This document shows, in pieces, positions 1 through 63,634 of a stretch of DNA of 64,000 bases. This DNA comes from Elusimicrobiota bacterium. GTDB lineage: Bacteria; Elusimicrobiota; Elusimicrobia; Elusimicrobiales; UBA9959. Within the stretch, counting starts at the first letter, position 1. Each line of letters begins with the position of its first letter. The DNA is taken from NCBI GenBank assembly GCA_016209085.1, contig JACQWV010000061.1:21710-85709 (forward strand), given 5' to 3'. Below the pieces are notes generated by a model. The model made no database searches, had not been told where the DNA came from, and was given only the letters and a program-made list of their open reading frames with translations. Position numbers and translations under genes: made by a program.

Positions 1-2
1 GT

Positions 3-788: not shown

Positions 789-828
789 TTTTCAGTTTCA
801 TTCCGACTAATTTAATGAAGAAATCAGT

Positions 829-2544: not shown

Positions 2545-2546
2545 AC

Positions 2547-2647
2547 CCCCCGACTCTGTCGGGGGATGGAGGCGGCCGCCCAAAGGGCGCAAGCCATCAG
2601 GCTTGTTGGAGTTGAAGCCCCCGACTCCTGTCGGGGGAGTTTCACTA
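2547..2647. repeat. GC-rich multi-hairpin island bounded by two near-identical hairpins
   Basis: CCCCCGAC-TCT-GTCGGGGG (2547..2565) and CCCCCGAC-TCCT-GTCGGGGG (2628..2647) bracket GGCGGCCGCC, GCCC-AAA-GGGC and AAGCC-ATCA-GGCTT hairpins. The island lies in an otherwise AT-rich stretch. Confidence 0.7.
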
Positions 2648-2679
2648 AGAGAAAATAATTTACAGAAAGATTTGAAAAT

Positions 2680-5341: not shown

Positions 5342-5344
5342 AAA

Positions 5345-6580
5345 ATGAGTGATTTATGCAGGAGTAACCATATATTAGTCCTTAACGATTGCAAATTAGA
5401 TAACAGTAAAGCGAATGACTTTGCTGACTTTAATACCCAACTGTTGATAAAAAATTTTGATAGCGGCCATATAATATATTTCATCGACCTGATAAGAGAA
5501 AAGGGTATAAAGTATACTGAAACTCAAATATTAAATACAATAAGGGAGAATAATATCTCAATAGTTTTTTTTGCTCCAAATGGAAGCAATTATGAATTAT
5601 CAATTGAATTTTTTAAGAGGTTGAGAGATAAATCAAAAGTGAAAACTGTATTATGGGTATTAGATGACGAATTAATTTTTGATGTATTAACAAAATACTA
5701 TGCTCAGGTATTTGATGCAGTTGTAACATGCGATTATTATGCAACGTTTGCTTACCAGAAATTAAATATTCCAGCCCTGTATTTTTTTTCCAGTTTTAGT
5801 AAGAAAGACTTTTATCCAATTAATATGGACAAGGATATTGATGTTAGTTTTGTTGGTGATCGTACAAAGGCAGACAGGATGGAGTATATAACTTATCTGA
5901 AAACTAAAGATATTAAAATAGTAACTTATGGGAACGGAAGTAAAAACTGTTTTATAAGCAAAAGAGATTTACCAAAGATATTTTCCCGGAGCAAAATTAA
6001 TTTAAATTTTACAAAAATCGATAAGGTTAAACCATTTGCATGGTTTTTGGAAGATAATACTCTGACAAACATTATAAGGCAAAATAAAGGCCGGCCCATG
6101 GAACTTGCGCTGACAAATTCCTTTTGTTTAAGTGAATATGCGCCGTCGCTTGGTTATACTTTTGAGATAGGCAAGGACATAGATGTATTCTATGATAAGG
6201 AAGATTTGTTAAGAAAAGTTCATTATTATCTTAAAAATGACGACTTGCGAGTGCAAATGGCGAACAATGCATATTGCAAAGCGATTACGCTTTATGAGGC
6301 GGATATATTTATGCCGAGATTGGTTGAAAAGTTATGCGGCATTTTGGATAATCATGTGTATTTAAAGAAGGAACAAATAATATATAAGGATAGTATATTT
6401 AAAAAAAATCACCTGATAAGATTAACTACAATGATGGTTTATCAGCTATCAAAATTCAGGTTCCGGCCTGCTTTTGAAACATTTTTAAATCTTTTTCAAT
6501 ATGGTTTCGGTATTTTTTGTATTTGTTTTTGCAAAGGGATTAAATTATCTCTGGTCAAAGCGTTTTATAGAAGAATGTAA
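5345..6580 (+). CDS. glycosyltransferase-like protein (CgeB/DUF3880-type), paralog 2
   Basis: 411-aa ORF, paralogous to 2680..3900 with the same motif order. Confidence 0.45.
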   Translation: MSDLCRSNHILVLNDCKLDNSKANDFADFNTQLLIKNFDSGHIIYFIDLIREKGIKYTETQILNTIRENNISIVFFAPNGSNYELSIEFFKRLRDKSKVKTVLWVLDDELIFDVLTKYYAQVFDAVVTCDYYATFAYQKLNIPALYFFSSFSKKDFYPINMDKDIDVSFVGDRTKADRMEYITYLKTKDIKIVTYGNGSKNCFISKRDLPKIFSRSKINLNFTKIDKVKPFAWFLEDNTLTNIIRQNKGRPMELALTNSFCLSEYAPSLGYTFEIGKDIDVFYDKEDLLRKVHYYLKNDDLRVQMANNAYCKAITLYEADIFMPRLVEKLCGILDNHVYLKKEQIIYKDSIFKKNHLIRLTTMMVYQLSKFRFRPAFETFLNLFQYGFGIFCICFCKGIKLSLVKAFYRRM

Positions 6581-6652: not shown

Positions 6653-7972
6653 ATGAGAATTTCGAGCAGTTATGGCAGACTGTTTTACGTTGCGATGGCG
6701 CTCATGTATTGTCTTTTGTATGAGTGGGTGAATATCTTTAACATACCAGGCGTAACGACATACGTAAATATACTGAAGTTTGCCCTTCCTTTTTTGCTGT
6801 TTCTGGGTCTCTCGTCTTATTTGTTTCCGAACTTTTCTCTTCCCAAAAAATACCTCCTCTATTTTGCGCTGTTCATGGTATGGGGACTTGTCCCGAACGT
6901 CTTGTCCGGCCATATACCCGAAACTATGATGCAATGGATGAAGTTCATTCTCCGTTTTTTCTTCTGCTATGTCATATTTGCATACTTACTACAACGGCCA
7001 GAGGCGAAAACGGTCATCATGAAGGCTCTGGTCGCAATAGCATTAGGTAATGTTTTGCAGTATATGATTCTCTCCATGTACTATGTGCCAGGGGATCCAA
7101 GCGGGTTCCCCTTGCCGATATCCCAACCGACGACCTACTATGGACCATACGGCCTCATGGGGGACGGAAATGCCTATTTAAGTTTTGAAAACTTTAATCT
7201 CAGAATTTTCAGGCTAACGGGGTTTTGGTTTGAACCTTCGAGCATCTCCGGATTTCTTTTTATGGCTTTTTTTCTTGCGAAAGCGCTCTTTGAGCAAACG
7301 CAACAGCGACGGTGGAAACTGTCTGGGCTCGTATGTCTCGGAGGCGGACTGTTGACCTTCTCGAATGCAGGCTATTTAGCATTTGGATGCGCGCTTTTAT
7401 CCGGGTATATCGTGCGATTCAAAGAAAAAAGAAAAAACTATCTATGCAATATTGTCAAAGTGATTATTTTGTTAGTGTTTATTTTTCTCACTGTATTCGG
7501 CAGGGCGATCATTGCCGAGTATTATCCTGACAATATGGTCTTGCGGAATCTTTCAGGTGTTAGGGATTCAGTGGAAGATCCATATAGTGGACGAATTGAA
7601 CAATTGCAATGCAATTTAGAGATTGTTTTAGAGCATCCAGAGGGAATTGGTTTCAGGATCATGGGAATAGATGCAGAAGGAAGAGGAGTTGCTTACGCTG
7701 GCGCCGCTCCTTTTGTGTGGCTCGTGTGTACAGGTTGGATAGGTCTTTTTTTAATCCTTATGAGAGATGCCCAAGTGTTACGAGCAATGAGGAAACGCCC
7801 TCTCTCCTCCAATTCGATTAGCATTTTCCAAGCATGGGCTGTTTTGTTTTTTCAGAATTTCACCTTTGGGACATGGATGACTCCGCTCTATTTTCTGCTG
7901 GTTGCTATGGTATTTACCGCGACTTATTACCGCAATGATACTGGCACCATCATGAAAGGCTCTCCTGTATGA
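6653..7972 (+). CDS. polytopic membrane protein, O-antigen polymerase (Wzy)-like
   Basis: 439 aa with about 10 hydrophobic segments and one large loop, located in a polysaccharide locus. I recognised no diagnostic motif. A compositional jump to higher GC starts here. Confidence 0.4.
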   Translation: MRISSSYGRLFYVAMALMYCLLYEWVNIFNIPGVTTYVNILKFALPFLLFLGLSSYLFPNFSLPKKYLLYFALFMVWGLVPNVLSGHIPETMMQWMKFILRFFFCYVIFAYLLQRPEAKTVIMKALVAIALGNVLQYMILSMYYVPGDPSGFPLPISQPTTYYGPYGLMGDGNAYLSFENFNLRIFRLTGFWFEPSSISGFLFMAFFLAKALFEQTQQRRWKLSGLVCLGGGLLTFSNAGYLAFGCALLSGYIVRFKEKRKNYLCNIVKVIILLVFIFLTVFGRAIIAEYYPDNMVLRNLSGVRDSVEDPYSGRIEQLQCNLEIVLEHPEGIGFRIMGIDAEGRGVAYAGAAPFVWLVCTGWIGLFLILMRDAQVLRAMRKRPLSSNSISIFQAWAVLFFQNFTFGTWMTPLYFLLVAMVFTATYYRNDTGTIMKGSPV

Positions 7973-18182: not shown

Positions 18183-18281
18183 TTGTCATTGATGCCAGAA
18201 GCGGCAATCTGAAGGTTAATTTTTTATCTTCGGGAGAGTGCGCATATCAAAGAAATTTTTTTACTATTACAGTATAAAAAT

Positions 18282-18330
18282 CTTCCAAATCTTTCAGGTT
18301 TTTATGTTTTCGTCCAGTTTTATATTCCTT
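18282..18330. repeat. 49-bp direct repeat, copy 1 (left flank of the DUF4143 cassette)
   Basis: CTTCCAAATCTTTCAGGTTTTTATGTTTTCGTCCAGTTTTATATTCCTT matches 19797..19845 at 48 of 49 nt. The minus strand reads ...DFTKEYKTGRKHKNLKDLEDFYTVIVKKFL*. Confidence 0.9.
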
Positions 18331-18528
18331 GGTAAAATCGTAAATGCTCACTGAAGCACGTCACTTTTGTGGGAATGACAACGGGATTCGCTGAATATTT
18401 ACTAAAAAAGTTTTGACAAATTAACTTTTACCTGCAATAATTATATACTGAGCTTTGCAGAAATGGTAAATCCTCACTAAAATAAAAAAAGAAGTCGGGT
18501 TAATGGGGTAAAGGGATGGAGAGTTTTT

Positions 18529-18583
18529 ATGGAAGTAACATTTCCAAAAATGGGCTAAAAATGGAATTTGTATTTCCAAAAAA
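18529..18583 (+). promoter_or_regulatory. two tandem TGGAA-N7-TTCCA palindromes upstream of the DUF4143 ATPase gene
   Basis: ATGGAAGTAACATTTCCAAAAA (18529..18550) and ATGGAATTTGTATTTCCAAAAAA (18561..18583) are spaced 32 bp apart and end 21 nt before the ATG. Confidence 0.45.
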
Positions 18584-18604
18584 TACTTTATATAATATAG
18601 CATC

Positions 18605-19759
18605 ATGAGAATAATAGACAGATACCTGGCGCCTTTAAAACAAAGTTTTTTTCTTTTTGGTCCAAGAGGGACGGGAAAGACATCATGGATAAAAGAAAAT
18701 TTTAAAGAAGCGCTTTATATAGATTTTCTTGATCCTAAAATTTTTAGGCTTTATTCCGCTTATCCTGAGCGCTTAAATGAAATAATTGAAGGTAATCCAG
18801 GGAAAAATGATATAGTTATTGATGAAATTCAAAGGGTTCCTCAAGTCCTTCCCGTGATACATTCTTTGATTGAAGATAAAAAAAATCTTCGTTTTATATT
18901 AACAGGTTCAAGTTCCAGAAAAATACGAAAAACCGGGACGGATTTGTTAGGCGGCCGGGCGGTGAGCCTTTCGATGTATCCTTTTATGGCTTCGGAGTTG
19001 GGAGGGAGTTTTTCTCTTGACAAGGCTTTAAGTGAAGGTCTCGTGCCTTTAATAGTTTCTTCAAATGATAGTTTAAAAACGCTTGCAGGATATATAACGC
19101 TTTATATAAAGGAGGAAATTCAAGCCGAAGCTCTTGTGAGAAATATCCCTTCTTTTGCCAGATTTATTGAGGCCGTAAGTTTTTCTCACGGAGCAGTTTT
19201 GAATGTTAGCGCCATTTCAAGGGAATGCCAGGTTGAAAGAAAAACAGTTGAGGGGTATATAAAGATCCTTGAAGATTTGCTTCTGAGTTTTAAGTTAAAC
19301 GTTTTTACAAAAAGAGCGAAAAGAAAAGTTATTGAACATCCCAAATTTTATATTTTTGACGTAGGGGTCTTTAGAAATTTGCGTCCGAAAGGTCCTTTTG
19401 ATCGTCCGCAAGAAATAGACGGCGCCGCTCTTGAAGGTCTCGTTGCCCAAAATATAAAGGCATGGATTGATTATAGGGGAAAGGATAATAAACTTTACTA
19501 TTGGCGAACCCCAAAGGGTATTGAGATTGATTTTATTGTATATGGAGAGGATGGAATATTTGCTATTGAAGTAAAAAATTCTTCCAAAATATATCCGGAG
19601 AATATTAGGGGGCTTGAGTTTTTTAAAGAAGATTATCCCGAAGCCCAATGCTTGCTTTTATATAGAGGTACCGAAAGAATAAAAAAGGGGAATGTGCTTT
19701 GTTTGCCATGTGAATCTTTTTTGAAAGATATTAAACCTGGAAAAAATATCCTGAAATAG
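18605..19759 (+). CDS. AAA-family ATPase with C-terminal DUF4143-type domain
   Basis: Walker A GPRGTGKTSW and Walker B VIDEIQRVP. The C-terminal GAALEGLVAQNI region is typical of DUF4143 proteins. Confidence 0.8.
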   Translation: MRIIDRYLAPLKQSFFLFGPRGTGKTSWIKENFKEALYIDFLDPKIFRLYSAYPERLNEIIEGNPGKNDIVIDEIQRVPQVLPVIHSLIEDKKNLRFILTGSSSRKIRKTGTDLLGGRAVSLSMYPFMASELGGSFSLDKALSEGLVPLIVSSNDSLKTLAGYITLYIKEEIQAEALVRNIPSFARFIEAVSFSHGAVLNVSAISRECQVERKTVEGYIKILEDLLLSFKLNVFTKRAKRKVIEHPKFYIFDVGVFRNLRPKGPFDRPQEIDGAALEGLVAQNIKAWIDYRGKDNKLYYWRTPKGIEIDFIVYGEDGIFAIEVKNSSKIYPENIRGLEFFKEDYPEAQCLLLYRGTERIKKGNVLCLPCESFLKDIKPGKNILK

Positions 19760-19796
19760 TTCTAAACGAATTTCTTTGCAATTAAAGTGTAGAAAC

Positions 19797-19845
19797 CTTC
19801 CAAATCTTTCAGGTTTTTATGTTTTCGTCCAGTTTCATATTCCTT
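19797..19845. repeat. 49-bp direct repeat, copy 2 (right flank of the DUF4143 cassette)
   Basis: See 18282..18330. The minus strand reads ...FKEYETGRKHKNLKDLEGFYTLIAKKFV*. Confidence 0.9.
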
Positions 19846-31331: not shown

Positions 31332-33398
31332 GTGTTTGAAAAAGTTCCGAGAATCATACGCTTTCTGCTTTTCAGCGTTCTCATTAATCTTCTGATTTTC
31401 TCGTCAATGAGGATTGCGTTCTTTTTGATATTCCGCAATCTGGATGAGATTATTCCGTTTGCGCTATTATGGAAGTCTTTTTACCTTGGATTTAAATTTG
31501 ACCTCAGGCTGGCGCTTCTGATAAATCTGCCTCTCCTGTTTTTGTTTAACGTCAGAAAAATTCATGCGTTTGAGAGCGTTTCCGGAAAAAGACTATGGAC
31601 CGCTTATTTCAGCCTGAGCGGCGCGGTTATACTGCTTTTTTATATTTTTGATTTCGGGCATTACGCGTATCTTCAGACCAGACTTAACGCAGCTGCTTTC
31701 AAGCTTCTTGCCAATCCTCTTATTTCTCTGAAAATGCTGTGGGAAACCTATCCAGTGATATCCGGCATCGCCGGAATCGGGTTGTTCAGCGCTCTTTACG
31801 GATATGCTTATAAAAGGGTTTTATATGGCCTGACGCAGGCGGAATCAATCAGCCGAAAAAAACAGACAGCCGTAGTGATTTTTACCGCAGTGTTTTTTGC
31901 AGCCGGAATTTACGGGAAATTTTCTTACTATCCCCTGCGCTGGTCCGACGCTTTTTTTTCAACTCGCTCATTTGCCTCCAACCTTGCCTTAAATCCGGCG
32001 CTTTATTTTTTTGACACTTTTAAAAGCAGGGATGAGGGTTTTGATATTGAAAAAGTGAAAACGTATTATCCTCTGATTGCCGATTATCTCGGAGTAAATC
32101 CCCCTTACTCCCCCTTTACCCCCACGCCAACCCGGTTGGTGTGGGGGTTTACAAAAGGGGGAAAAGAGGGGTATTTTACAAAAAAAATTGATTTTTCAAG
32201 GCGCGTAAGTTTTGCCGGAAAACAAACCAGCAATAAAAAAATAAACATAATCATAGTTCTGCTTGAGTCTTTTGCCGCTTATAAAAGCGGGATATTCGGC
32301 AATCCTCTGAATCCCACTCCTCATATGGACGGGCTGGCGAAAAATTCATGGCTTTTCAGAAGATTTTACGTCCCGAGCGAAGGAACCGCCCGTTCGGTGT
32401 TTACTCTTGTCGCTGGAATCCCCGACATAGAAATAAACGCCACTTCAAGCAGAAATCCCGCTATAGTCAAACAATCCACCGTTTTAAACGCTTTTAAAGG
32501 TTATGAGAAATTCTATTTTCTGGGCGGCAGCGCCACATGGGCCAACATAAGAGGGCTTCTTTTCCATAACGTGCCGGGGCTGAAAATATACGAGGAAGGC
32601 AGTTATGATTCTTCAAGGGTTGACGTGTGGGGGATTTCTGATTTGAATCTCTTTGAAGAGGCAAACAGGGTGTTAAAAAAATCCAAGGGTCCGTTTATCG
32701 CGATTATCCAGACCTCAGGCAGTCATAGGCCATATACCATACCCAAAGACAACAGGGGATTTAAAGTAATGCCCATGAAAGACGAAGAAACGGCTAAATA
32801 CGGGTTCGTATCCTCCGCTGAATTTAATTCATTCAGATTCCTGGACCACAGCGTGGGCTTTTTTATGGAAACAGCCGGAAAAGAAAAATATTTTGAGAAT
32901 ACCGTTTTTGTTTTTCTAGCTGACCATGGCCTTCCCGGTAAGGCTCCTCACATGGGGAAAGCCGAAGAACTTCTTGAATTGACCAGGTTTCACGTTCCTT
33001 TTTTGATTTATTTCCCCAAGGCGACGCAAAAGGGGGCTGTTTTTGACGGGATAGTCACTGAAATGGATGTTCTGCCCACCTTGGCTTCAATGGCTGGGAT
33101 TCCCCATCTTAATACGGGGTTCGGCAGGGACATGTTTGACAGGCGTTTTGACAAAAAACGCCGCGCTTTTACCCTTATCGCCGACGGCCCGGATCCGACG
33201 ATAGGGCTTTTAACCGATAAATTTTATTTTGCGATGAATAGAAGCGGAAAAAACAAAAGATTGCATGACTATCATTCAAAAACTCCCGGAGACAACCTTT
33301 TTGGAAAACATCCTGAAATTTCATCGGAAATGGAGAATTTTTTGAACGCTTTTTATGAAACCGCCAGATACGTGCGCTATCATAATCACAGCAGGTGA
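31332..33398 (+). CDS. LtaS/MdoB-like membrane sulfatase-family transferase (phosphoglycerol/phosphoethanolamine transferase-like)
   Basis: N-terminal TM helices and a C-terminal alkaline-phosphatase-superfamily domain (IIVLLESF, SGSHRPY, FLADHG). GTG start. Carries an in-frame palindromic insert at 32098..32176. Confidence 0.7.
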   Translation: MFEKVPRIIRFLLFSVLINLLIFSSMRIAFFLIFRNLDEIIPFALLWKSFYLGFKFDLRLALLINLPLLFLFNVRKIHAFESVSGKRLWTAYFSLSGAVILLFYIFDFGHYAYLQTRLNAAAFKLLANPLISLKMLWETYPVISGIAGIGLFSALYGYAYKRVLYGLTQAESISRKKQTAVVIFTAVFFAAGIYGKFSYYPLRWSDAFFSTRSFASNLALNPALYFFDTFKSRDEGFDIEKVKTYYPLIADYLGVNPPYSPFTPTPTRLVWGFTKGGKEGYFTKKIDFSRRVSFAGKQTSNKKINIIIVLLESFAAYKSGIFGNPLNPTPHMDGLAKNSWLFRRFYVPSEGTARSVFTLVAGIPDIEINATSSRNPAIVKQSTVLNAFKGYEKFYFLGGSATWANIRGLLFHNVPGLKIYEEGSYDSSRVDVWGISDLNLFEEANRVLKKSKGPFIAIIQTSGSHRPYTIPKDNRGFKVMPMKDEETAKYGFVSSAEFNSFRFLDHSVGFFMETAGKEKYFENTVFVFLADHGLPGKAPHMGKAEELLELTRFHVPFLIYFPKATQKGAVFDGIVTEMDVLPTLASMAGIPHLNTGFGRDMFDRRFDKKRRAFTLIADGPDPTIGLLTDKFYFAMNRSGKNKRLHDYHSKTPGDNLFGKHPEISSEMENFLNAFYETARYVRYHNHSR
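32115..32152. repeat. 38-bp palindromic element, intragenic copy
   Basis: TTTACCCCCACGCCAACCCGGTTGGTGTGGGGGTTTAC. The second copy is at 54274..54311. C-runs and G-runs on either side extend the palindrome to about 32098..32176. Confidence 0.85.
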
Positions 33399-33453
33399 TA
33401 AGGTGATACTGAGTAAGTAACTAAAAAATACAAATTTGATACAATTTATGTTT

Positions 33454-33679
33454 TTACTGAGCTTCGCAGAAATAATGGATACGTTGGAGGCTCAGATTTG
33501 GATTGGATGCAAGGCGCGACGAATAAGCATAGCGTCTGCTATGTGAGTGAGGAGCAACGCAGCAGACGGCCAAATATGAGCCTCCCCTTTCCCTTGAAGG
33601 GAAAGGGGCTGGCCGCTTTTCTGTCTCGCTCAAAAATCGGCTCAGCCAGCGTACCCATTATTTCTGCGAAGCTCAGTAA
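33454..33679. repeat. nested-palindrome element (MITE-like or structured leader) upstream of glgP
   Basis: A perfect 23-bp inverted repeat ACTGAGCTTCGCAGAAATAATGG (33456..33478 and 33655..33677) encloses two further stems. These are GGAGGCTCAGATTTGG/CCAAATATGAGCCTCC and the hairpin CCCCTTTCCCT-TG-AAGGGAAAGGGG. Confidence 0.8.
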
Positions 33680-33692
33680 TGGAGGAACATTC

Positions 33693-36257
33693 ATGAAAAT
33701 AACTTCATTTAACGTTGTTCCCAATCTTCCGGAAAATTTAAAAGCATTGAACGAGCTGACTGAAAACATGTGGTTTACATGGAACTGGGACGCCATAATG
33801 CTGTTCGTCGGAATTGACGAGGATTTGTGGCACAGGTCGCACAGGAATCCCAAATGGATGCTGGGCGCTCTTCCGCCCGAAAGGTTTGAAGCGTTGAGCA
33901 GGGACCAGGCCTTTCTTGAAAAGCTGGAAAAAATTAAGAATAAGTTTGACGCTTATATGAACTGCCCAGACACATGGTTCAGCAAAAACTGTCCTCCTGA
34001 CATGAAGGATTTCACGGCGGCTTACTTTTCCATGGAATACGGAATCGGGGAAGGACTTCCGATATATTCAGGAGGGCTCGGCATGCTTTCAGGGGACCAT
34101 TTGAAAACAGCGAGCGAGCTGGGTATTCCTGTCTTTGCGGTGGGCTTGCTGTACAGGAAGGGCTATGTCCAGCAGGTTCTGAACAGGGATAACTGGCAGG
34201 TGGAAAGGTATCCGGAGAATGACTGGTACAACATGCCGGTTCAGATAGTCAATGATTCTTCAGGCAATCCGCTCCGCATAGATTTGAACCTGGCCGGCGA
34301 AAACGTGCAAGTCGGGATATGGCGCGTTCCTGTGGGCAGGAATTCGCTGTTTCTGCTTGACACGAACCTTCCTGAAAACAAGGCTCATGTCAGGAGCATA
34401 ACCGAACAGCTTTACGGAGGAGACAGGGAAAACAGGATATGCCAGGAAATAGTTTTAGGCGTAGGCGGGGCCAGGGCTCTTGAGGCAATGGGCGTCAATC
34501 CCTCGGTTTACCATGTGAATGAAGGTCATTCGGCTTTTCTGCTTTTTGAACGGATAAGGCAGTTCATGAAAAACAGGAAGATTTCTTTTGAAGAGGCCAA
34601 GGAAGCGGTCTGGAGTTCCTCGGTTTTTACCACACACACCCCGGTCATAGCCGGCAATGAATATTTTGATTTTGAGTTGGTGCGGAAATACATGGAGTCG
34701 TATTCCGGGGAACTCGGAATATCATGGCCCGAGTTCCTTGAAATCGGAAAGGAGGAACCTTCTTCAACTACTTTCTGCATGACGATTCTCGCGTTGAGAT
34801 TATGCGCTTTTCTGAACGCTGTAAGCCGCCTGCACCGCGATACGACGCGGGACATGTGGCAGAAAATATGGTCCGGGCTTGCGAAATATGAAATTCCGAT
34901 TTACGGCATAACCAACGGGGTGCATACCTGCTCATGGATAAGCCACGAGCATCTGGATTTATATAAAAAATACGCGCTCAGGGACAGTCAGAGCATTGAA
35001 GACCTGCCTGAGAACTGCGACTGGCAGAAAATCATGGACATTGACGATAGGGAATTCTGGGAAGTTCACATGTCCAGAAAGAATAAATTGATAAACATGA
35101 TAATCCGGGAGAGAATGCAGAGGCAGTATAAGCGGCTTGGAGCCGACGCCACTGTTCTGGAGGAAATAAAAAACGTCTTAAATCCCGGCTATCTGACCAT
35201 AGGCTTTGCCAGGAGATTCGCCTCTTATAAAAGGGCCAATCTGATTTTCAGGAATCCCGACAGACTTCTTGAAATAGCTGCCAGCGACAAAATGCCGGTG
35301 CAGTTCGTTTTCGCGGGCAAGGCGCACCAGGCCGACGCTTTCGGCAAGGAAATAATAAAAGAAGTGGCCAGATACAGCATGGACAAGAAGTTCAAGCAGA
35401 GAATTGTTTTCGTGGAAGATTATAACATGAACGTCGCGCGATACATGGTGCAGGGAGTCGACGTGTGGCTTAATAATCCGGTAAGACCTCTTGAGGCTTC
35501 GGGAACAAGCGGGATGAAAGCGGTCATTAACGGCGTTTTAAATCTCTCCGTTCTGGACGGCTGGTGGATGGAAGGATATTCCTCGCAGACAGGATGGGCC
35601 GTCGGGGGCCTGGAAAATTACAGGGACGACGCTGAAAGGGATTATGTGGAATCGGAATCCATATATAATCTCCTGCAAAAAGTCATAGCCCCGCTTTATT
35701 ACGACAGGGGCGAGGACGGAATACCGCACGGCTGGATAAAAATGATGAAAAACTCAATCGTCAGGCTCGTTCCCGAATTCAACACAAACCGGATGCTTAA
35801 AGAATACTGGGAAAAATTTTACGGCCGCGCCTATTCAATGAACAAGAGATTGCTGGACAACGGCAAAGTCATGGAGCTTGCAAAATGGCGGAAGAAAATC
35901 AGAGACAACTGGCAGAAAGTCAAAGTCGTTCTTGAACCTTTCAAACCCATGATGGAAATACATTCGGGCGCGAAAATCCCGGTAAAAGCGCGCGTGTGGC
36001 TTGGAGATTTGACGCCTGAAGACGTGGACGTGCAGGTTCACATAGGAAGCATTGACGGGGACGTTTTTTTCAAACAAGGGACTTCTTTCAGCATGGGGTG
36101 CGAGTCTCATCAGGGGGACGCCTGGATTTTCAGGGGCGACATAGTATGCGTAAAAAGCGGCAAGCACGATTTTGCCGTAAGGGTCGTTCCCAAACATCCT
36201 GACATCGTGCATCCCTACATGCCTTTGTTCATTAAATGGAATGACGAGGGTAGTTGA
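33693..36257 (+). CDS. glgP: alpha-glucan (glycogen/maltodextrin) phosphorylase, GT35
   Basis: Start moved to the ATG after GGAGG (MKITSFNVVPNLPENL...WFTWNWD). EASGTSGMK is the PLP-lysine motif. The track start 33498 would translate the palindromic leader. Confidence 0.9.
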   Translation: MKITSFNVVPNLPENLKALNELTENMWFTWNWDAIMLFVGIDEDLWHRSHRNPKWMLGALPPERFEALSRDQAFLEKLEKIKNKFDAYMNCPDTWFSKNCPPDMKDFTAAYFSMEYGIGEGLPIYSGGLGMLSGDHLKTASELGIPVFAVGLLYRKGYVQQVLNRDNWQVERYPENDWYNMPVQIVNDSSGNPLRIDLNLAGENVQVGIWRVPVGRNSLFLLDTNLPENKAHVRSITEQLYGGDRENRICQEIVLGVGGARALEAMGVNPSVYHVNEGHSAFLLFERIRQFMKNRKISFEEAKEAVWSSSVFTTHTPVIAGNEYFDFELVRKYMESYSGELGISWPEFLEIGKEEPSSTTFCMTILALRLCAFLNAVSRLHRDTTRDMWQKIWSGLAKYEIPIYGITNGVHTCSWISHEHLDLYKKYALRDSQSIEDLPENCDWQKIMDIDDREFWEVHMSRKNKLINMIIRERMQRQYKRLGADATVLEEIKNVLNPGYLTIGFARRFASYKRANLIFRNPDRLLEIAASDKMPVQFVFAGKAHQADAFGKEIIKEVARYSMDKKFKQRIVFVEDYNMNVARYMVQGVDVWLNNPVRPLEASGTSGMKAVINGVLNLSVLDGWWMEGYSSQTGWAVGGLENYRDDAERDYVESESIYNLLQKVIAPLYYDRGEDGIPHGWIKMMKNSIVRLVPEFNTNRMLKEYWEKFYGRAYSMNKRLLDNGKVMELAKWRKKIRDNWQKVKVVLEPFKPMMEIHSGAKIPVKARVWLGDLTPEDVDVQVHIGSIDGDVFFKQGTSFSMGCESHQGDAWIFRGDIVCVKSGKHDFAVRVVPKHPDIVHPYMPLFIKWNDEGS

Positions 36258-36652: not shown

Positions 36653-37624
36653 CTATTCTATTTCCCTGCGGGTTGTTTTCGGGGGTTCCTGTTTGTCCTG
36701 TATTTTTTTATCGTAAAAATTTATCATTTTTATCCTGGTTTCTTTTGTCCAGTTTCCGTTTTTATCTATCAGACGTTCGTATAAATACTCAAAAGACGGT
36801 TCCTCTGAGTTTCCCGAATAATGGAGTTCCCTGTTTTTCTGTCCGGAACTGTCGTGCAAACTTTCAATTTTTGAAAGAACCTGTTCGCCTTTGTCAAAAG
36901 AAAATATCGTTTCCTTGCGCAGCGCGCCGTTATCCCGGTATTCTATGATTGTTTTTTCAATCAGCTGTTCGGCGTCGTCAAAGACAGAAACGGTTTTCGT
37001 ATGCGTTGCATCGTTATAAGAAACCAATTCCTTATTAATCTGTATTCCCTCAATGTCATAAGCCGCCGTTTCAATAATTCTGTCTTGTTTGTCGTATTTA
37101 AACGTTTTTCTGGATTCAAAATTTCCCATTGAATCGTAAAGGTATTCCCCGGTTCTCCTGCCTTTTTTGTCTTTGATTGTCAGGATCAGGTTTACCAGGT
37201 TCATCTGGGCGGCGGACGGGCCTTTATATACGCGGGTTTGGGCAAAGGGGGTTTTTCCGAATTCTTTGCAGAAATCTTTTATTGAATAGCCGGAACCATC
37301 TATTGAAAAAGGAGCGCCGGCGTCTTCGTTTTTTTTGCACAGCCCGGATTCTCCGCCGGTTTTGCGTTCAAATCTCGTCTTTGAAACAAGCGTTTTTCCC
37401 TCAAACTTTTCTTCTTCCGCCTGCATTCCTTCAGAGTCAAAACGGATTGTTGTCAGAAATTTAGGCGAGCCTTCAATCCATTTTTTATCTTTCCTGAGAC
37501 TTTGTATTTCCATGATTTTGATTGATTTTATGCGGCCTTTTAATTTTAAGGACTCTAAATCCTCCTGCATATGTGAATTCAGGGGGAGAGCCGCGAAAAA
37601 TAAAAACAGAAACGATTTTGTCAT
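36653..37624 (-). CDS. hypothetical secreted protein with weak YD-like beta-hairpin repeats
   Basis: Signal peptide MTKSFLFLFFAALPLNS. There are repetitive Y/F-x-YD-like segments. No family recognised. Confidence 0.4.
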   Translation of the reverse strand: MTKSFLFLFFAALPLNSHMQEDLESLKLKGRIKSIKIMEIQSLRKDKKWIEGSPKFLTTIRFDSEGMQAEEEKFEGKTLVSKTRFERKTGGESGLCKKNEDAGAPFSIDGSGYSIKDFCKEFGKTPFAQTRVYKGPSAAQMNLVNLILTIKDKKGRRTGEYLYDSMGNFESRKTFKYDKQDRIIETAAYDIEGIQINKELVSYNDATHTKTVSVFDDAEQLIEKTIIEYRDNGALRKETIFSFDKGEQVLSKIESLHDSSGQKNRELHYSGNSEEPSFEYLYERLIDKNGNWTKETRIKMINFYDKKIQDKQEPPKTTRREIE

Positions 37625-53048: not shown

Positions 53049-53747
53049 TTAGTTCATTATCTGATAAGAAACAAGCTGGATTTTTTCCTGCACGTCCTCT
53101 CCGAGAATTTCTTCGTACACAAGACCTGTTCCGGAAGCGTAATATCTTGAGGCAGTTCCTGCGTCTCCGTCGCCGATTTTAGCGGTTATTTTCAGGCAGT
53201 TTTCAAAAGACCCCGCCGGGACGGCTGTTTTCGCGTTAAGGGAGGTTATCCTGTATGTGTTTGAACCTTCCTCCCACGTCTTGCCTCTGTATAGCGGGAA
53301 AGGTATTTCGGTCCTTTTGCCGGCCAATATGCTGTCTGAAGAATGAAGGCCTTTTTCAGTCAGCTGAATGAAGAACGTGCCTGACTGGATTTTGGAGCCT
53401 CTTATGACCGTGACTTTGACCGTTGTCGTGTAATCCTTCTCCGAATATTCAACGAACTCAACGACTACCCGTTTGGTTCCGAGGAATTCGCTGCTTGTGT
53501 ATTCATATTCATATCTCATCTTTTTTTCCATCGGGAAATAGCTGAGGGGCGACGGCGAATTTGCCGCATCTTTTGTTTCTTCCGTCAGACCGGACGGGAG
53601 TTCAACGGGTTTTTGAACCTGAAGCATGTTCAGGGAATCAACTGGAGCGGCGTTTTGCAGAGCGCTCAACGCTTCTGATTCGGCGTATAAAACAGCCTGT
53701 CCCGCGCAAATGAGCGCTGAAAAAATAAATACAATAATCCTTTTCAT
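53049..53747 (-). CDS. hypothetical secreted protein
   Basis: Signal peptide MKRIIVFIFSALICAGQAVLYA. 232 aa. No family recognised. Confidence 0.4.
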   Translation of the reverse strand: MKRIIVFIFSALICAGQAVLYAESEALSALQNAAPVDSLNMLQVQKPVELPSGLTEETKDAANSPSPLSYFPMEKKMRYEYEYTSSEFLGTKRVVVEFVEYSEKDYTTTVKVTVIRGSKIQSGTFFIQLTEKGLHSSDSILAGKRTEIPFPLYRGKTWEEGSNTYRITSLNAKTAVPAGSFENCLKITAKIGDGDAGTASRYYASGTGLVYEEILGEDVQEKIQLVSYQIMN

Positions 53748-58502: not shown

Positions 58503-59369
58503 ATGACTTCATCAGGTCAACTCAATCAGGACAATAAAAAGGCTGATTTCAGCCAGACGGCCTCGCTTCCCCAGGGATACGGAAACACCGAAGGGACGCT
58601 TTTGCCGAGAGATCCCAACTGGATGTTCATTTACTGGGAAATAACCGACGCTTCCAGGAATAATTTGCGCAAAGAACACGGGCAGGATCTTTTTGATAAA
58701 TCCAGGCCCGTCATAAGAGTGCACGACGTAACGGGTATTGAGCGTTTTGACGGAGCAAACTCTAATAGGTATTTTGATATTCCGATAATGCTTGACGCCA
58801 GAAACTGGTACATAAACGTGCAGGACAGCGGAAAATGCTATTGCTGCGAAGTCGGGCTGGTCCTGCCTGACGGAAAATTCCTCGGCATTGTAAGAACCAA
58901 TAGCGTCTCGCTTCCTTCCGGCAGGGTTTCAGACGTCACGGATGAGAAGTGGATGAGCATTTCTTCGGATTTTGACAAACTTCTTCAGCTTTCGGGCGTG
59001 GAATATATCGGCAAAGGCTCGGGGGAAGTCGCAAAGTCCCTGGCTCAGAGATGGGAAATGCTGAGAGCCGTTTTTTCAAGAGCCGCTTCATGGGGGATAA
59101 GCTCCATATCTTCCCATGTCAGGGAAAAGCCCCAGGAAAAAAAATTCTGGCTTGTTGCCGACTGCGAACTGATACTTTACGGCGCGACAGAGCCGGACGC
59201 TTTTGTGACCGTGGCCGGCAGAAAAGTGACGTTAAATCCTGACGGAACTTTTTCAATGCGGTTTGCTCTTCCCGACGGCAACATGGACCTTCCTATAAAA
59301 GCCGTTTCCAGGGACGAGTCTGATACCAGGAAAATAGAAATGAAAGTTTCAAGGGCAACGAACACTTAA
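58503..59369 (+). CDS. DUF4912 domain protein
   Basis: LPQGYGNTEGTLLPRDPNWMFIYWEI is typical of DUF4912 proteins, which are often paired with GH57 branching enzymes. Confidence 0.7.
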   Translation: MTSSGQLNQDNKKADFSQTASLPQGYGNTEGTLLPRDPNWMFIYWEITDASRNNLRKEHGQDLFDKSRPVIRVHDVTGIERFDGANSNRYFDIPIMLDARNWYINVQDSGKCYCCEVGLVLPDGKFLGIVRTNSVSLPSGRVSDVTDEKWMSISSDFDKLLQLSGVEYIGKGSGEVAKSLAQRWEMLRAVFSRAASWGISSISSHVREKPQEKKFWLVADCELILYGATEPDAFVTVAGRKVTLNPDGTFSMRFALPDGNMDLPIKAVSRDESDTRKIEMKVSRATNT

Positions 59370-59425
59370 TGGCAAAGCAAGCTTTGCAGCTACCTTAGAT
59401 TTAGGATCAAGATTAATCAAGATTA

Positions 59426-61048
59426 ATGGAAAACCAAGAAAAAGGCTACCTCGCCCTTGTTTTGCACGCTCACCTTCCTTTTATCCGTCATCCCGAGTAC
59501 GAGGATTTTCTGGAAGAGGACTGGTTTTTTGAAGCAATGACGGAAACCTACATCCCGTTGCTTGACATTTATGAAAGGCTTACCAGGGAAAACATAGATT
59601 TCAGAATAACCATGTCCCTTACCCCGCCGCTGTGCGCGATGATGACCGACGAGCTTTTGCGCGAGAGATTCAGGAACTATCTGTACCAGCGCGTAGAACT
59701 TTCCGAAAAAGAAACCGTAAGATTAAGAAATACCCAGTTCTACGAATCCGCAAAGATGTATGAGGGAAAGTTCAAAAGGATACGGGAGCTTTACCAGGAT
59801 TACTACGGGGAGAACATTCTCAACGGCTTTAAAAAATTCCAGGACATGGGAAAACTGGAAATAATAACCTGCGGCGCCACGCACGGGTTTCTTCCCCTGC
59901 AGGTAAAAAAAGAAGCCGTCCACGCGCAGGTTAAAACCGCGGCGGACGACTACAGGAGATGCTTCGGCAGAAATCCCAGAGGAATATGGCTTGCGGAATG
60001 CGCTTACAACCCGGGAGACGACGCGTATCTCAAGACCAGCGGCATAAGGTATTTTTTCCTTGAAACCCACGGCATAATTTACGGAAGTCCCAGACCCAGA
60101 TACGGGGTTTACGCTCCGGTGTATTGTCCGAGCGGGGTGGCGGCTTTCGGAAGGGACATGGAATCGGCCCATCAGGTATGGAGCGCGGAAATGGGTTATC
60201 CCGGCGACTACAGGTACAGGGAATTTTACAGAGACGTGGGTTATGACCTTGAATACGATTACGTAAAGCCCTACCTGCACTCGGACGGCGTCAGGAGAAA
60301 CATCGGCATAAAATATTACAAAATAACCGGCAGGGTTCCGTTAAGCGAAAAGGCTCCTTACAATCCGTGGGAGGCTAAGGAAACCGCCGCTGGGCATGCG
60401 GGCAATTTTATGTTCAACAGGGAAAGACAGATAGAACATCTTTACGGATTTTTGGGAAGGAAGCCAATACTCGTTTCAATGTACGACGCCGAGTTGTTCG
60501 GCCACTGGTGGTATGAAGGCCCGGATTTTATAGAATACCTGTTCAGAAAGATTCATTACGACCAGAAGACCATAAAACTCATAACCCCGAGCGAATATCT
60601 CCAGATTCAGCCCGATAACCAGGTGATACAGCCCTCAATGTCTTCATGGGGGGATAAAGGCTACAACGAGGTTTGGCTGAACGGCACGAACGACTGGATG
60701 TACAGGCACCTTCACAAAGCGGTTGAAAGAATGATTGAAATGGCAAATAAATTTCCGGATGTCGACGGCGTTCTGAAGAGGGCTTTGAATCAGTGCGCAA
60801 GGGAGATATTTCTTGCCGCTTCTTCGGACTGGGCTTTTCTTATGACGGTCGGCACTGCCAAGACGTATTCCACAAAAAGGTTCGTGGACCACGTACACCG
60901 TTTTTTCGCTCTCCACGGCCAGATAATGTCAAATTCAATAGATGAGAATTTTCTGAAAGACATTGAATGGAAGGATAACGTTTTTCCCGCCATTGACTAC
61001 CGGGTTTATTCCTCAACCCGCGCACCCGATAATATCTTTACCAGGTAG
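59426..61048 (+). CDS. GH57 1,4-alpha-glucan branching enzyme (DUF1957 type)
   Basis: GYLALVLHAHLPFIRHPE, EEDWFFEAMTETYIPLL, CGATHGFLP and DAELFGHWW. Confidence 0.85.
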   Translation: MENQEKGYLALVLHAHLPFIRHPEYEDFLEEDWFFEAMTETYIPLLDIYERLTRENIDFRITMSLTPPLCAMMTDELLRERFRNYLYQRVELSEKETVRLRNTQFYESAKMYEGKFKRIRELYQDYYGENILNGFKKFQDMGKLEIITCGATHGFLPLQVKKEAVHAQVKTAADDYRRCFGRNPRGIWLAECAYNPGDDAYLKTSGIRYFFLETHGIIYGSPRPRYGVYAPVYCPSGVAAFGRDMESAHQVWSAEMGYPGDYRYREFYRDVGYDLEYDYVKPYLHSDGVRRNIGIKYYKITGRVPLSEKAPYNPWEAKETAAGHAGNFMFNRERQIEHLYGFLGRKPILVSMYDAELFGHWWYEGPDFIEYLFRKIHYDQKTIKLITPSEYLQIQPDNQVIQPSMSSWGDKGYNEVWLNGTNDWMYRHLHKAVERMIEMANKFPDVDGVLKRALNQCAREIFLAASSDWAFLMTVGTAKTYSTKRFVDHVHRFFALHGQIMSNSIDENFLKDIEWKDNVFPAIDYRVYSSTRAPDNIFTR

Positions 61049-63634
61049 TATTCCCGCTTTTTCGCTTATTTTCTCAGACAAATCAATGAATTCCTGATTC
61101 TCGCCCGCATTTCTGGAAATATCAATCAGGAAATTCTGGATGTGAAATATCAGGTCATCCATCCGGAGCATTTTTGAAATTTCAAGAATGCTGCCGACCA
61201 TTTTCAGATTTTCAGCCGTCGGGCTTGTTTTAAAATCTATCAGTATTTTTAAAAACTTCAGCAGGGTTTCGGCCTCCGGCTGTATCTGGACTTTGATTCC
61301 GTGTTTTGTCAATTTTTCCGAAAATCCGATAATCTTTTCAAGCAAGGCCGGAACAGCCGCACCGCGGCCGGAGCAACGAGCCTCTGGCTCATCAAGTGCA
61401 GGGGGCTCTGTCCCCCTGCCACAGGTGCCGTGAGTTATACGAACGGCCTCTTCCCGGATGTGTATAAACTCGTTAAGATAAGAATTTATCAAATATTTTG
61501 CGCATCTTTTTATTTCATCGGCAGGATCCCTGCCCGGCTCAAAACCGTTCCCCGACAAATGCTCCATTAACAGAAAATGCTCTTCAATAGCGCTTTCAAA
61601 CGCGGCTCTGTGTTTTGTCTGGATGTTACGGGAAACAAGTTTAAATACGGACAGTTTCTCTGAAAAAGGCAGAGTCTGAAGGTCGACTGCCGTAAATCCT
61701 TTGATTGCTTGCGGGGTTTTATCGGCGTCCAAGAGAGATACGGCGTTTTCAAAAACTTTCTGCGCGTCGTTTTTTGAGAGGTATATGGCCGGAAGAGACG
61801 TCGCCGTTTCGGAGAGACATGCAAAAGTCTTTCTGAATTCTTCTCCTGTCGTTTTATTCCTGAGATTGAGAATGCCCGCCGCTGACATGTTTTTCTTGAT
61901 TAATTTTTCAAAGCCGGCAACGTAGCCGTAGAGATAAGGAAATTCTTTGTCCTGATAAATCGTTCTAATCAAAAAAGCCGCGAAGATATGCTCCAAAGAA
62001 GGGACTGAAGAAATTACAAGTCTTTCATAAATTTCCAGGCCGTTCGCAGCGCTCGCGGCACATGGGGGTCGGGTGGCATAGCGCCCGACACTTGATGAGC
62101 CAGAGGCTCGTTGTTCCGCGGCAGCGCCGCTGTTCCGTCCGTTTCCATATGAGGTAAAATTTGAAGGAGCGGTTTCAAGCAGAGAAAGAAATCCTTTTTC
62201 CAGGCCTTTATAGCCCAGATCCTCTGCTGTTTCAACGGCTTTTGCCGCGTATTTCAGATTCTGGACCGCTTCTATGCGGGATATGTCTGAAAAGAACCAG
62301 CCGCAGCTTGTAAACATGTACATGGAGTTCTTCTGCATTTCAAGCAGTTTAACGGCTTTGATTTTCTCGGCGCGTTCAAGAGTCCTTTCGGAGTTTCTGG
62401 AGAAAAACGAGTTGAAGTTCTCTTCTGACCTGTCAATCATCAGGTTTATGTAATCGTTTCTTGCCTGCCAGACATCCCTAAAAAGCGGAGCCGCCTCTAC
62501 TTTGTAAATTTCATACAATGCGTCCCTGAGCCAGTTCATGGCGGCTCTTAACGGATGCCTCCAGTTGAGGTGAAAATTTTTTTCCTTTCCGCACTCGCAG
62601 CCGCCTTTCCATCTTCTGACTCCGTGGAAACAGCTCCATGAAGCGCCTTCTCCGTCCGGGCCTTTTTTGAGTTCAACTTCTAAGTGGGGTTTGTGGTCGC
62701 TGAGGAACAGGGAAAGGCTTGTCGTTTCTATGCCGTATTTTTTTAATTCGTGCCTGAACGCATGCGCAATCGTCATATCCGCGAATTTATGGTGATGCCC
62801 GTAGCTTTCCCCGTCCGCCGCTATCAGCACGAGCTGGTCCCGGGTCGGGTCCGTATAACAGAGGGAAATTCTCCGGACAAAATTTTCGGAGTTTTTCAGA
62901 GCGTCTTCAAACGAGACTGCCCCGGAAATTCCGGCATCGTAAAAGAAAACCGCTATGCTTCTGTGTTTGATTCTGTTTCCTTCGGCATCCCTGTCGCGCC
63001 AGGCATAAGGCTTTTTCGGGTCAATGCTTCCGTTTGAAACATCTGTCCATTTATTCGTTTCAGGAGACTTTATTTTTTCAGCCTGATGGGGGGACAGAAT
63101 CACGTATTTCATTCCGTGGTCAATCAGGAGTCTGAGAGTGTCTTCATTGACGGCTGTTTCCGGCAGCCACATCGCCTCGGGCCTGAAGCCGAACCTGTAT
63201 TCAAAATCCTTTATGCCCCACACAATCTGGGTTACCTGGTCCTGAAAACTCGCCAAAGGCATTATTATGTGATTATATGCCTGGGCTATCGCGTTCGGAT
63301 GTCCGCTTGAATCTTTTATCCTCCCGACCGTGTTTACAATCTGCTCATGGATGAAAGGATATTCTTTTTCCAGCCAGTTCAAAAGCGTGGGGCCGAAATC
63401 AAAATTCAGATATTCATAATTGTTTACTGCTTCTATTATTTTCCCTGCATTATCGGTTATTCTGGCATAAAGATTGGGGATGTAACATTCCCTTGATATT
63501 CTCCGGTTCCAGTTGTCATAAGGATAGGCAGAAGGATCAAAGTCAGGCTCGCCGGTCCAGGGATTTTCCCGCGGCGGCTGATAAAAATGCGCGTGAACCG
63601 CTAAACATTTTTTCGCTTGTCTGGTTTCCGGCAT
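61013..63634 (-). CDS. GH57 family glycoside hydrolase (DUF3536 type)
   Basis: LAVHAHFYQPPRENPW N-terminus. WLPETAV and DGESYGHH motifs. 873 aa. Carries two in-frame repeat copies. Confidence 0.8.
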   Translation of the reverse strand: MPETRQAKKCLAVHAHFYQPPRENPWTGEPDFDPSAYPYDNWNRRISRECYIPNLYARITDNAGKIIEAVNNYEYLNFDFGPTLLNWLEKEYPFIHEQIVNTVGRIKDSSGHPNAIAQAYNHIIMPLASFQDQVTQIVWGIKDFEYRFGFRPEAMWLPETAVNEDTLRLLIDHGMKYVILSPHQAEKIKSPETNKWTDVSNGSIDPKKPYAWRDRDAEGNRIKHRSIAVFFYDAGISGAVSFEDALKNSENFVRRISLCYTDPTRDQLVLIAADGESYGHHHKFADMTIAHAFRHELKKYGIETTSLSLFLSDHKPHLEVELKKGPDGEGASWSCFHGVRRWKGGCECGKEKNFHLNWRHPLRAAMNWLRDALYEIYKVEAAPLFRDVWQARNDYINLMIDRSEENFNSFFSRNSERTLERAEKIKAVKLLEMQKNSMYMFTSCGWFFSDISRIEAVQNLKYAAKAVETAEDLGYKGLEKGFLSLLETAPSNFTSYGNGRNSGAAAEQRASGSSSVGRYATRPPCAASAANGLEIYERLVISSVPSLEHIFAAFLIRTIYQDKEFPYLYGYVAGFEKLIKKNMSAAGILNLRNKTTGEEFRKTFACLSETATSLPAIYLSKNDAQKVFENAVSLLDADKTPQAIKGFTAVDLQTLPFSEKLSVFKLVSRNIQTKHRAAFESAIEEHFLLMEHLSGNGFEPGRDPADEIKRCAKYLINSYLNEFIHIREEAVRITHGTCGRGTEPPALDEPEARCSGRGAAVPALLEKIIGFSEKLTKHGIKVQIQPEAETLLKFLKILIDFKTSPTAENLKMVGSILEISKMLRMDDLIFHIQNFLIDISRNAGENQEFIDLSEKISEKAGILPGKDIIGCAG
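61367..61420 (-). repeat. GC-rich multi-hairpin repeat, copy B (intragenic, sense relative to its host gene)
   Basis: The reverse complement reads GGCAGGGGGACAGAGCCCCCTGCACTTGATGAGCCAGAGGCTCGTTGCTCCGGC. Confidence 0.9.
62068..62120 (+). repeat. GC-rich multi-hairpin repeat, copy C (intragenic, antisense relative to its host gene)
   Basis: GTCGGGTG-GCATAG-CGCCCGAC followed by the identical 24-nt core CACTTGATGAGCCAGAGGCTCGTT (62089..62112). Confidence 0.8.

Follow-up and report, generated by a model that had tools for sequence, protein, structure and literature searches.

The glgP locus and its genomic setting

The window analysed here, a 64-kb stretch of DNA taken as a whole, comes, according to exact protein look-ups (NCBI proteins MBI46563xx, locus tags HY746_), from an Elusimicrobiota MAG and has the character of an ordinary chromosome, containing a polysaccharide-synthesis cluster, gap-pgk, secG, lysA, Hdr/Mvh-like genes, an ABC transporter and glycogen genes of the GH57 type. 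The alpha-glucan phosphorylase gene glgP is preceded by a gene for a sulfatase-like membrane protein and followed by a cold-shock protein gene. The spacer from the upstream stop codon to the start codon of glgP measures 294 nt, and 222 of these belong to a palindromic unit (Table 1), which consequently covers most of the glgP leader and not the whole of it, as a preliminary description of this DNA had proposed.

Several other parts of the window deserve mention. At the start of the polysaccharide-synthesis cluster (window 1-6000), which encodes radical-SAM/B12 enzymes, glycosyltransferases and a flippase, the G+C content is 31-36%, compared with about 45% in the rest of the window; this low value suggests a horizontally exchanged surface-polysaccharide module. 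A second set of glycogen genes, comprising DUF4912, a DUF1957 branching enzyme of the GH57 type and DUF3536, is located at 58503-63634, 25 kb away from glgP, so that glgP lies outside that cluster. In addition, Pfam recognises nothing in three sizeable ORFs of 323, 439 and 232 aa (36653-37624 on the minus strand, 6653-7972 on the plus strand and 53049-53747 on the minus strand, respectively).

Table 1. Features of the glgP leader, its neighbours and the solo terminus, in window coordinates
Feature	Position	Strand	Remarks
Gene for sulfatase-like membrane protein	31332-33398		upstream gene
Candidate extended -10 box TGATACAAT	33437..33445	+	read by eye in the 72-nt empty spacer
Duplicated TA target site, left copy	33455..33456	.	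empty/filled comparison
Putative MITE body, 220 bp	33457..33676	.	CTGAGC... to ...GCTCAG; absent from L001
Left terminal inverted repeat	33457..33499	+	25 bp perfect including flanking T and TA
Right terminal inverted repeat	33634..33676	-	repeat finding
Internal arm P2	33486..33585	.	16-18-bp stem GGAGGCTCAGATTTGG / CCAAATATGAGCCTCC; distal hairpin 33527-33544
Internal perfect palindrome P3	33584..33608	.	CCCCTTTCCCTT-G-AAGGGAAAGGGG; 33584-33595 / 33597-33608
Internal arm P4	33607..33647	.	15-bp imperfect hairpin CTGGCCGC...GGCTCAGCCAG
Duplicated TA target site, right copy	33677..33678	.	empty/filled comparison
glgP RBS GGAGG (33681-33685) and start codon ATG (33693-33695)	33681..33695	+	target DNA, outside the element
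glgP, alpha-glucan phosphorylase	33693-36257		DUF3417 and Phosphorylase domains
Strain-variable block, 141 nt	18342..18482	.	contains the solo 19-mer and a promoter-like site; alignment
Solo TIR-like 19-mer TACTGAGCTTTGCAGAAAT	18446..18464	+	18/19 identical to the MITE arm

Architecture of the palindromic unit

The unit is bounded by a 23-mer, ACTGAGCTTCGCAGAAATAATGG, with a single copy on either strand (33456-33478 on the plus and 33655-33677 on the minus strand). Two matches were reached in none of 100 shuffles, and the inverted repeats of the element are far above chance. The 23-bp perfect inverted repeat described beforehand is present and in fact extends to 25 bp (TTACTGAGCTTCGCAGAAATAATGG), whereas its extension with one mismatch, previously put at about 28 bp, is real and measures 30 bp. 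Repeat finding stretches the arms further, up to 46 nt with 85% complementarity (33454-33499 / 33634-33679). Inside the arms, a 16-nt stem matching at 94% (33486-33501 / 33570-33585) corresponds to the inner stem with one mismatch that had been noticed before, while the hairpin reported as having 11-bp arms and a TG loop exists in a slightly longer form, the P3 palindrome, with arms of 12 nt and a loop of 1 nt. On the minus strand, P3 was also marked as a weakly terminator-like sequence. On the right side, the distance of 3 nt separating the end of the perfect 23-mer from the glgP GGAGG was confirmed.

Folding of the unit, one of the checks put forward in the preliminary description, yielded very low energies, with z-scores of about -11 to -12 for RNA of the two strands: -129.7 kcal/mol (z = -10.95) for the plus strand and -118.9 kcal/mol (z = -12.4) for the minus strand. 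Single-stranded DNA reaches -72.7 kcal/mol (z = -10.8). As both strands and the DNA fold equally well, a palindrome at the DNA level fits these values better than a strand-specific RNA does. The predicted architecture is that of a 31-bp closing helix around three hairpin arms, at about -127 kcal/mol.

Empty and filled alleles of the insertion site

The most direct evidence on the nature of the unit comes from the comparison of alleles. An exact look-up of the GlgP protein in Logan contigs led to a contig of 6,411 bp from an independent SRA run (SRR12113404; hereafter L001), which encodes an identical GlgP of 854 aa. All of its 6,411 bases match the window in two segments (2,392 + 4,019) with 0 mismatches, and exactly 222 bp of the window, corresponding to the element plus one TA, are absent from it. 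Consequently, the gap between the sulfatase-like gene and glgP is 72 nt in L001 versus 294 nt in the window, and the empty allele retains the same RBS and start codon of glgP. The empty site, gttttTAatggagg, contains one TA and lies in the context ...atgtttttAatggagg..., whereas the filled site of the window reads gttttTA[CTGAGC...220 bp...GCTCAG]TAatggagg, or, in a longer form, ...atgttttTA-CTGAGCTTCGC...GCGAAGCTCAG-TA-atggagg..., with a TA on both sides. The filled and empty sites therefore differ by an insertion/deletion with exact boundaries and display a duplication of the target TA. The comparison of glgP upstream regions for presence or absence of the unit as a block, as had been advised, thus ended in the absence of precisely that block.

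Two further Logan contigs, retrieved with the upstream sulfatase protein, bear on the distribution of the alleles. The first of them (L028, from SRR12113406) contains the filled left junction and proceeds 23 nt into the element with 0 mismatches, these 23 nt being the C of the TA-C junction and 22 nt of the left arm, and ends at window position 33479. The 25-bp inverted repeat is shorter than k = 31 and by itself should not break the graph of this contig; possible reasons for the stop are that few reads cover the palindrome or that its interior differs in SRR12113406. The second one (L029, from SRR12113399) ends exactly at the TA, at window position 33456. A fork between filled and empty alleles would stop a de Bruijn contig at this very point, and the position of the contig end hence suggests that both alleles occur in SRR12113399. 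Judging from these sequence comparisons, the insertion is segregating among closely related, otherwise identical genomes, which, together with the perfect 25-bp arms, argues for a very recent event.

Identity of the element and its mobilisation

The terminal inverted repeats and the duplicated TA around a body of 220 bp point to transposition by a cut-and-paste element that targets TA. Accordingly, we are highly confident in regarding the unit as a mobile element with inverted repeats and a duplicated TA, and it is very probably a MITE, i.e., a non-autonomous DNA transposon of 220 bp (33457-33676) with TIRs of about 25-46 bp, inserted at a TA 15 bp upstream of the glgP start. The earlier suggestion of a MITE or a recently formed element is in this way borne out by the otherwise identical contig that lacks exactly 222 bp and by the TA duplication around the TIRs. 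The element has several attributes of such transposons: it is small, carries no transposase gene, ends in terminal inverted repeats and is flanked by a target-site duplication evident from the filled and empty sites. It has been described that bacterial MITEs typically possess inverted repeats, TA termini and target duplications and give rise to long stem-loop transcripts (PMC2229807).

The insertion at TA with a 2-bp TA duplication is also what characterizes the IS630/Tc1-mariner family. ISY100, a member of this group, inserts almost exclusively at TA, which becomes duplicated, has inverted repeats of 24 bp and requires about 30 bp per end (PMC2170065), and it is thought that RUP, a pneumococcal MITE, is mobilised by IS630-Spn1 (PMC2229807). 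An IS630-type assignment of the element, drawn solely from the TA duplication, is fairly likely. The sequence of events would then be that, in one lineage of the Elusimicrobiota population, the element entered a TA that was duplicated in the process, by cut-and-paste transposition catalysed in trans by a DDE transposase of the IS630/Tc1-mariner family encoded elsewhere in the genome or the population. A Pfam scan of the about 50 ORFs of the window detected no transposase, and full-length IS with these ends were found in none of the genome, metagenome, viral and plasmid scans. The window contains one full copy of the element, plus one 19-nt fragment resembling its end. Concatenated six-frame translations of the element matched no homologue among 5.8 billion proteins at E <= 0.01, a search that also covers copies miscalled as genes, and an exact look-up of the two element-overlapping ORFs of at least 30 aa (59 aa and 36 aa) returned no record. 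Likewise, a consensus scan reported no promoter-like site inside the element.

Among the alternatives, mobilisation of the same inverted-repeat element by something other than an IS630/Tc1-mariner transposase, be it another DDE family that generates 2-3-bp duplications or a REP/BIME-like system, appears unlikely, though less so than the others. In its favor, no cognate transposase was recovered from the window or from the genome and metagenome scans, and the betaproteobacterial relatives of the element (see below) are mosaic, with a first hairpin module that stands alone at the loci L016 and L023, recalling REP/BIME-type sequences. IS30 and similar families give 2-3-bp duplications, and a 2-bp duplication alone cannot exclude them. 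On the other hand, it is TA that is duplicated here, and TA also flanks L015 and L022, the complete betaproteobacterial copies, on either side, with their right ends lying outside the search pattern. IS200/IS605- or RAYT-type mobilisation is not known to produce TIRs this long or a target duplication. A palindromic element derived from IS200/IS605 (PATE) or a REP, which are recognised by subterminal hairpins without long TIRs and without target duplication, was also considered and does not agree with the 25-46-bp TIRs and the TA duplication.

It is improbable that the element is old at this locus and that the empty alleles arose by precise excision or by deletion between the two TAs. The comparison of filled and empty sites is by itself symmetric, and the DNA would be mobile either way; nevertheless, the arms have kept 25 perfect bp and the flanks are identical over 6.4 kb, as expected for a very young event, and deletion between 2-bp repeats situated 222 bp apart is rare. 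Moreover, excision by the cut-and-paste mechanism of the Tc1/IS630 type usually leaves a footprint. As to direction, we infer that insertion at glgP is favored over excision elsewhere.

Much less credit still can be given to the view that the unit is an evolved, conserved structured leader, such as a riboswitch, an attenuator or a protein-binding RNA, regulating glycogen phosphorylase. Such a leader would agree with the highly stable, multi-branched fold that immediately precedes the glgP RBS and with the open frame +1, which is in frame with glgP. Against it, the block is missing as a whole from L001, where the flanks and GlgP are 100% identical, so that conservation among orthologous leaders is not what is observed; its bounds consist of perfect inverted repeats and a duplicated TA; and the opposite strand and the DNA fold just as well. 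At gathering thresholds, Rfam recognises two tRNAs in the window and nothing in the region of the element, and at E <= 10 there is no match beyond two chance-level hits to eukaryotic families. The earlier alternative of a large structured leader that controls glycogen phosphorylase is hence abandoned as regards an evolved regulator, although the element may still be transcribed within the leader and alter expression as a side effect. Finally, the palindrome is scarcely conceivable as an artefact of MAG assembly (a chimeric join or fold-back reads), given that, although long palindromes can stem from library artefacts and contigs break nearby, with L028 ending 23 nt into the element, this contig, assembled independently from another run, carries the filled left junction without a single mismatch, the bounds are clean and transposon-like (TA...TA) instead of a fold-back of local sequence, and the interior has no relation to the flanking DNA.

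The identification of the element as a putative MITE has practical consequences, as the most conspicuous structured-RNA-like feature of the window ought to be annotated as a mobile element and not as a regulatory RNA. It also shows that transposition has taken place recently, or is still under way, in a population of uncultured Elusimicrobiota, visible as a filled/empty polymorphism between metagenomic samples. No description of MITEs in Elusimicrobiota was found in the literature searched; what is new is this particular element and the phylum, the kind of element being already known, that of an ordinary mobile element.

The solo terminus and the DUF4143 region

The end-like fragment mentioned above is a 19-mer situated upstream of the DUF4143 gene. 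Its presence had been noted previously, and its position is corrected here from 18438-18461 to the one given in Table 1. It has no inverted partner within 2 kb. The upstream TTGACA-17-AATAAT arrangement that had also been pointed out is indeed the best promoter-like match of the region (11/12 positions, with a TG extension, 18413-18441), so that the 19-mer starts about 5-7 nt downstream of a near-consensus sigma-70-like site, TTGACA-17-TGcAATAAT. Three Logan samples (SRR12113404, SRR12113405 and SRR12113399) have an unrelated 59 nt instead of window 18342-18482, and the DUF4143 gene downstream of this block is identical in all three contigs. The left flanks of the solo 19-mer and of the glgP copy, compared with regard to a shared target or promoter, show no significant similarity.

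The simplest reading of these sequences is that the solo 19-mer probably survives from one end of a related element, within a rearranged segment, because it sits in a block that is replaced between strains and because the same 19-mer ends TA-bounded elements in Betaproteobacteria. The arm sequence may also mark an operator or a transcript 5' end, as had been proposed, and it does begin about 7 nt beyond a strong promoter-like site; no evidence in favor of such a role was found, however, and the two observations make it the less simple reading.

The DUF4143/AAA_14 ATPase gene (18605-19759) belongs to a cassette of low G+C (about 35%), bracketed by a direct repeat of 82 nt (18249-18330 / 19764-19845, 88% identical) that is longer by about 60 nt in other samples. 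The Logan contigs for the DUF4143 gene and for the downstream gap gene all break inside the bracketing repeats, and when an allele without the cassette was sought through GAPDH contigs, the contig was again found to break in the repeat. Overall, window 18249-19845 resembles a gene cassette whose insertion duplicated the upstream region of gap.

Relatives and shared termini

The search for further copies covered GTDB representative genomes, scanned with the pattern TACTGAGCTTNGCAGAAAT, JGI metagenomes, scanned with TACTGAGCTTYGCAGAAATRRT, and viral and plasmid sequences. The genome scan returned 20 loci, a number close to chance expectation. Fourteen of them are single, chance-like matches, most of which, together with both viral hits, lie inside ORFs of at least 100 codons; the other six fall in soil betaproteobacterial MAGs, four of these in one MAG. 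The metagenome scan gave only two contigs, from soil and of the same betaproteobacterial type. Apart from these betaproteobacterial relatives, neither GTDB representatives nor JGI metagenomes contain exact or near-exact matches to the terminal repeat. Viral contigs searched with three patterns gave no match or chance matches without TA, and blastn of the element, of its 37-nt end and of the betaproteobacterial module against plasmids and phages retrieved nothing meaningful. The 23-mer, whose occurrence elsewhere had been suggested as a check, was accordingly found nowhere beyond the two arms, either in the 64-kb window or in the collections searched. This absence is not decisive against a MITE, the source genome being outside those collections.

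The betaproteobacterial loci (L009, L013, L015, L016 (MAG BP_30), L018, L020, L022 and L023) have in common a terminal 19-mer that is identical to the solo 19-mer and matches the MITE arm at 18 of 19 positions. TA+CTGAGCTTYGCAGAAAT is the end shared by the MITE and by these TA-flanked, multi-copy elements of 130-160 bp, the layout of which is TA-CTGAGCTTTGCAGAAATGAYTGAC...GTCAACCATTTCCGTAARRCTYAG-TA, with the 19-mer outermost. Their inverted repeats match at 22 of 26 positions, TA is present on both sides, and their internal G/C-rich hairpins are of the CCCCTCTCCC...GGGAGAGGGG type. The family is modular, being composed of a first 45-bp hairpin, which also stands alone (L016, L023), of CCCTCACCCC/CCCCTCTCCC...GGGAGAGGGG hairpins and of a ACGGAAATGGT...ACCATTTCCGT end. 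Its copies often adjoin gene starts (L018, L022, L023), and those of L009 and L020 supply the TGA stop codon of the upstream ORF. In L022, an RBS and ATG follow the copy at a distance of 15 nt, an arrangement close to that at glgP.

How far this relationship extends has to be stated with care. A MAFFT alignment of the MITE with the betaproteobacterial elements looks colinear; the local-alignment scores of the interiors are within shuffled expectation in three of four comparisons and marginal in the remaining one. Homology of the whole elements was consequently dropped, and only the termini are claimed as shared. A coincidental match of 18-19 of 19 terminal positions in the correct orientation is unlikely, with a probability roughly estimated at below 1e-4. 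The resemblance of the terminal sequences indicates related ends and hence probably related transposases, which hints at a widely spread transposase lineage. No mention of the terminal sequences or of the SRA run numbers was found in the literature searched.

A broader and rather doubtful reading would unite all these observations in an undescribed, currently active MITE lineage, distributed across Elusimicrobiota and soil Betaproteobacteria, with TA-CTGAGCTTYGCAGAAAT as its end and acting as a portable leader module. As part of this reading, the elements may land preferentially in the few nucleotides separating promoter and RBS, and three cases would fit: at glgP, the copy follows a possible extended -10 box by about 10 nt, the solo 19-mer stands about 5 nt beyond a near-consensus promoter, and the L022 copy precedes its RBS by 15 nt. 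Were it true, the element would be a portable module of roughly -127 kcal/mol that resets mRNA processing and stability, and a transcript starting at the solo end could base-pair with the glgP copy along 19 nt of its right arm, including one G-U, and so connect the two loci.

Possible consequences for glgP expression

Whatever its origin, the element probably forms a transcribed addition of 222 nt to the glgP leader, as it sits between a likely promoter or the upstream gene, on one side, and the RBS on the other. The candidate extended -10 box TGATACAAT was not reported by the consensus scan, as no -35 box reaches 4/6; transcription from it would start 3-5 nt before the insertion site. Alternatively, glgP would be read through from a co-transcribed upstream gene. 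The added leader is expected to fold as a self-contained multi-branched domain. In the predicted folds, a weak hairpin surrounds the RBS and start codon and is left unaltered by the insertion, so that these models do not foresee the RBS being occluded directly.

Three routes by which the insertion might affect glgP are plausible by analogy with other elements: RNase III would cut the 31-bp stem, the base-paired 5' end would stabilise or protect the mRNA, or transcription would in part terminate at the G+C hairpin inside the element. The insertion may just as well be neutral. It has been established that RNase III cuts Correia elements at their inverted repeats and that ERIC elements affect mRNA decay (PMC10969869, PMC2649163). 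The natural pair of alleles, identical except for the 222 nt, could serve to measure the effect of an insertion on the expression of a carbon-storage gene.

With respect to coding, one frame of the element (+1) is free of stops and in frame with glgP, such that a TTG at 33498 would open an ORF of 919 aa (window 33456-33692). This in-frame extension is probably a coincidence, one that could lead gene callers to mis-extend GlgP by 65 residues.

Comparison with known elements

The soil betaproteobacterial elements, in spite of the common terminus, differ from the glgP element in being modular, in the phylum and G+C of their hosts and in interiors that are not significantly similar. Among the classical families, the enterobacterial ERIC (IRU) sequences share with it the imperfect palindrome, the TA termini and the insertion in transcribed intergenic regions, where their effect on mRNA stability depends on orientation (PMC2229807, PMC10969869). 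However, ERIC sequences are 127 bp long, have perfect inverted repeats of 7 bp and are old and largely immobile, whereas the element at glgP has a perfect stretch of 25 bp and is present in some members of a single population and absent from others.

A closer likeness in the presumed mode of mobilisation is found with RUP and its partner IS630-Spn1 (PMC2229807), in that RUP is short and non-coding, carries TIRs, inserts at TA and presumably depends on an IS630-family transposase acting in trans. Similarly, ISY100 needs 24-30 bp per end and duplicates TA (PMC2170065), which parallels the 25-bp perfect ends and the TA duplication at glgP. Compared by description, RUP is a 107-bp element with about 100 copies whose repeats resemble those of a known IS; here, in contrast, one copy of 220 bp is known, no cognate IS was found and the host is an uncultured member of the Elusimicrobiota.

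Finally, the Correia elements of Neisseria (NEMIS, CREE) have inverted repeats of 24-26 bp and duplicate TA, are often located near gene starts and co-transcribed, and form a long RNA hairpin that can be cut by RNase III; their insertions are polymorphic between strains and alter the expression of neighbouring genes (PMC2229807, PMC2649163, PMC10969869). They differ from the present element in sequence family and phylum, in their length of 100-155 bp and in carrying an IHF site and promoter-forming ends, the scan of the glgP element having reported no promoter-like site inside it; the likeness is a functional one. By this analogy, Correia could provide the best model for how the insertion upstream of glgP acts.
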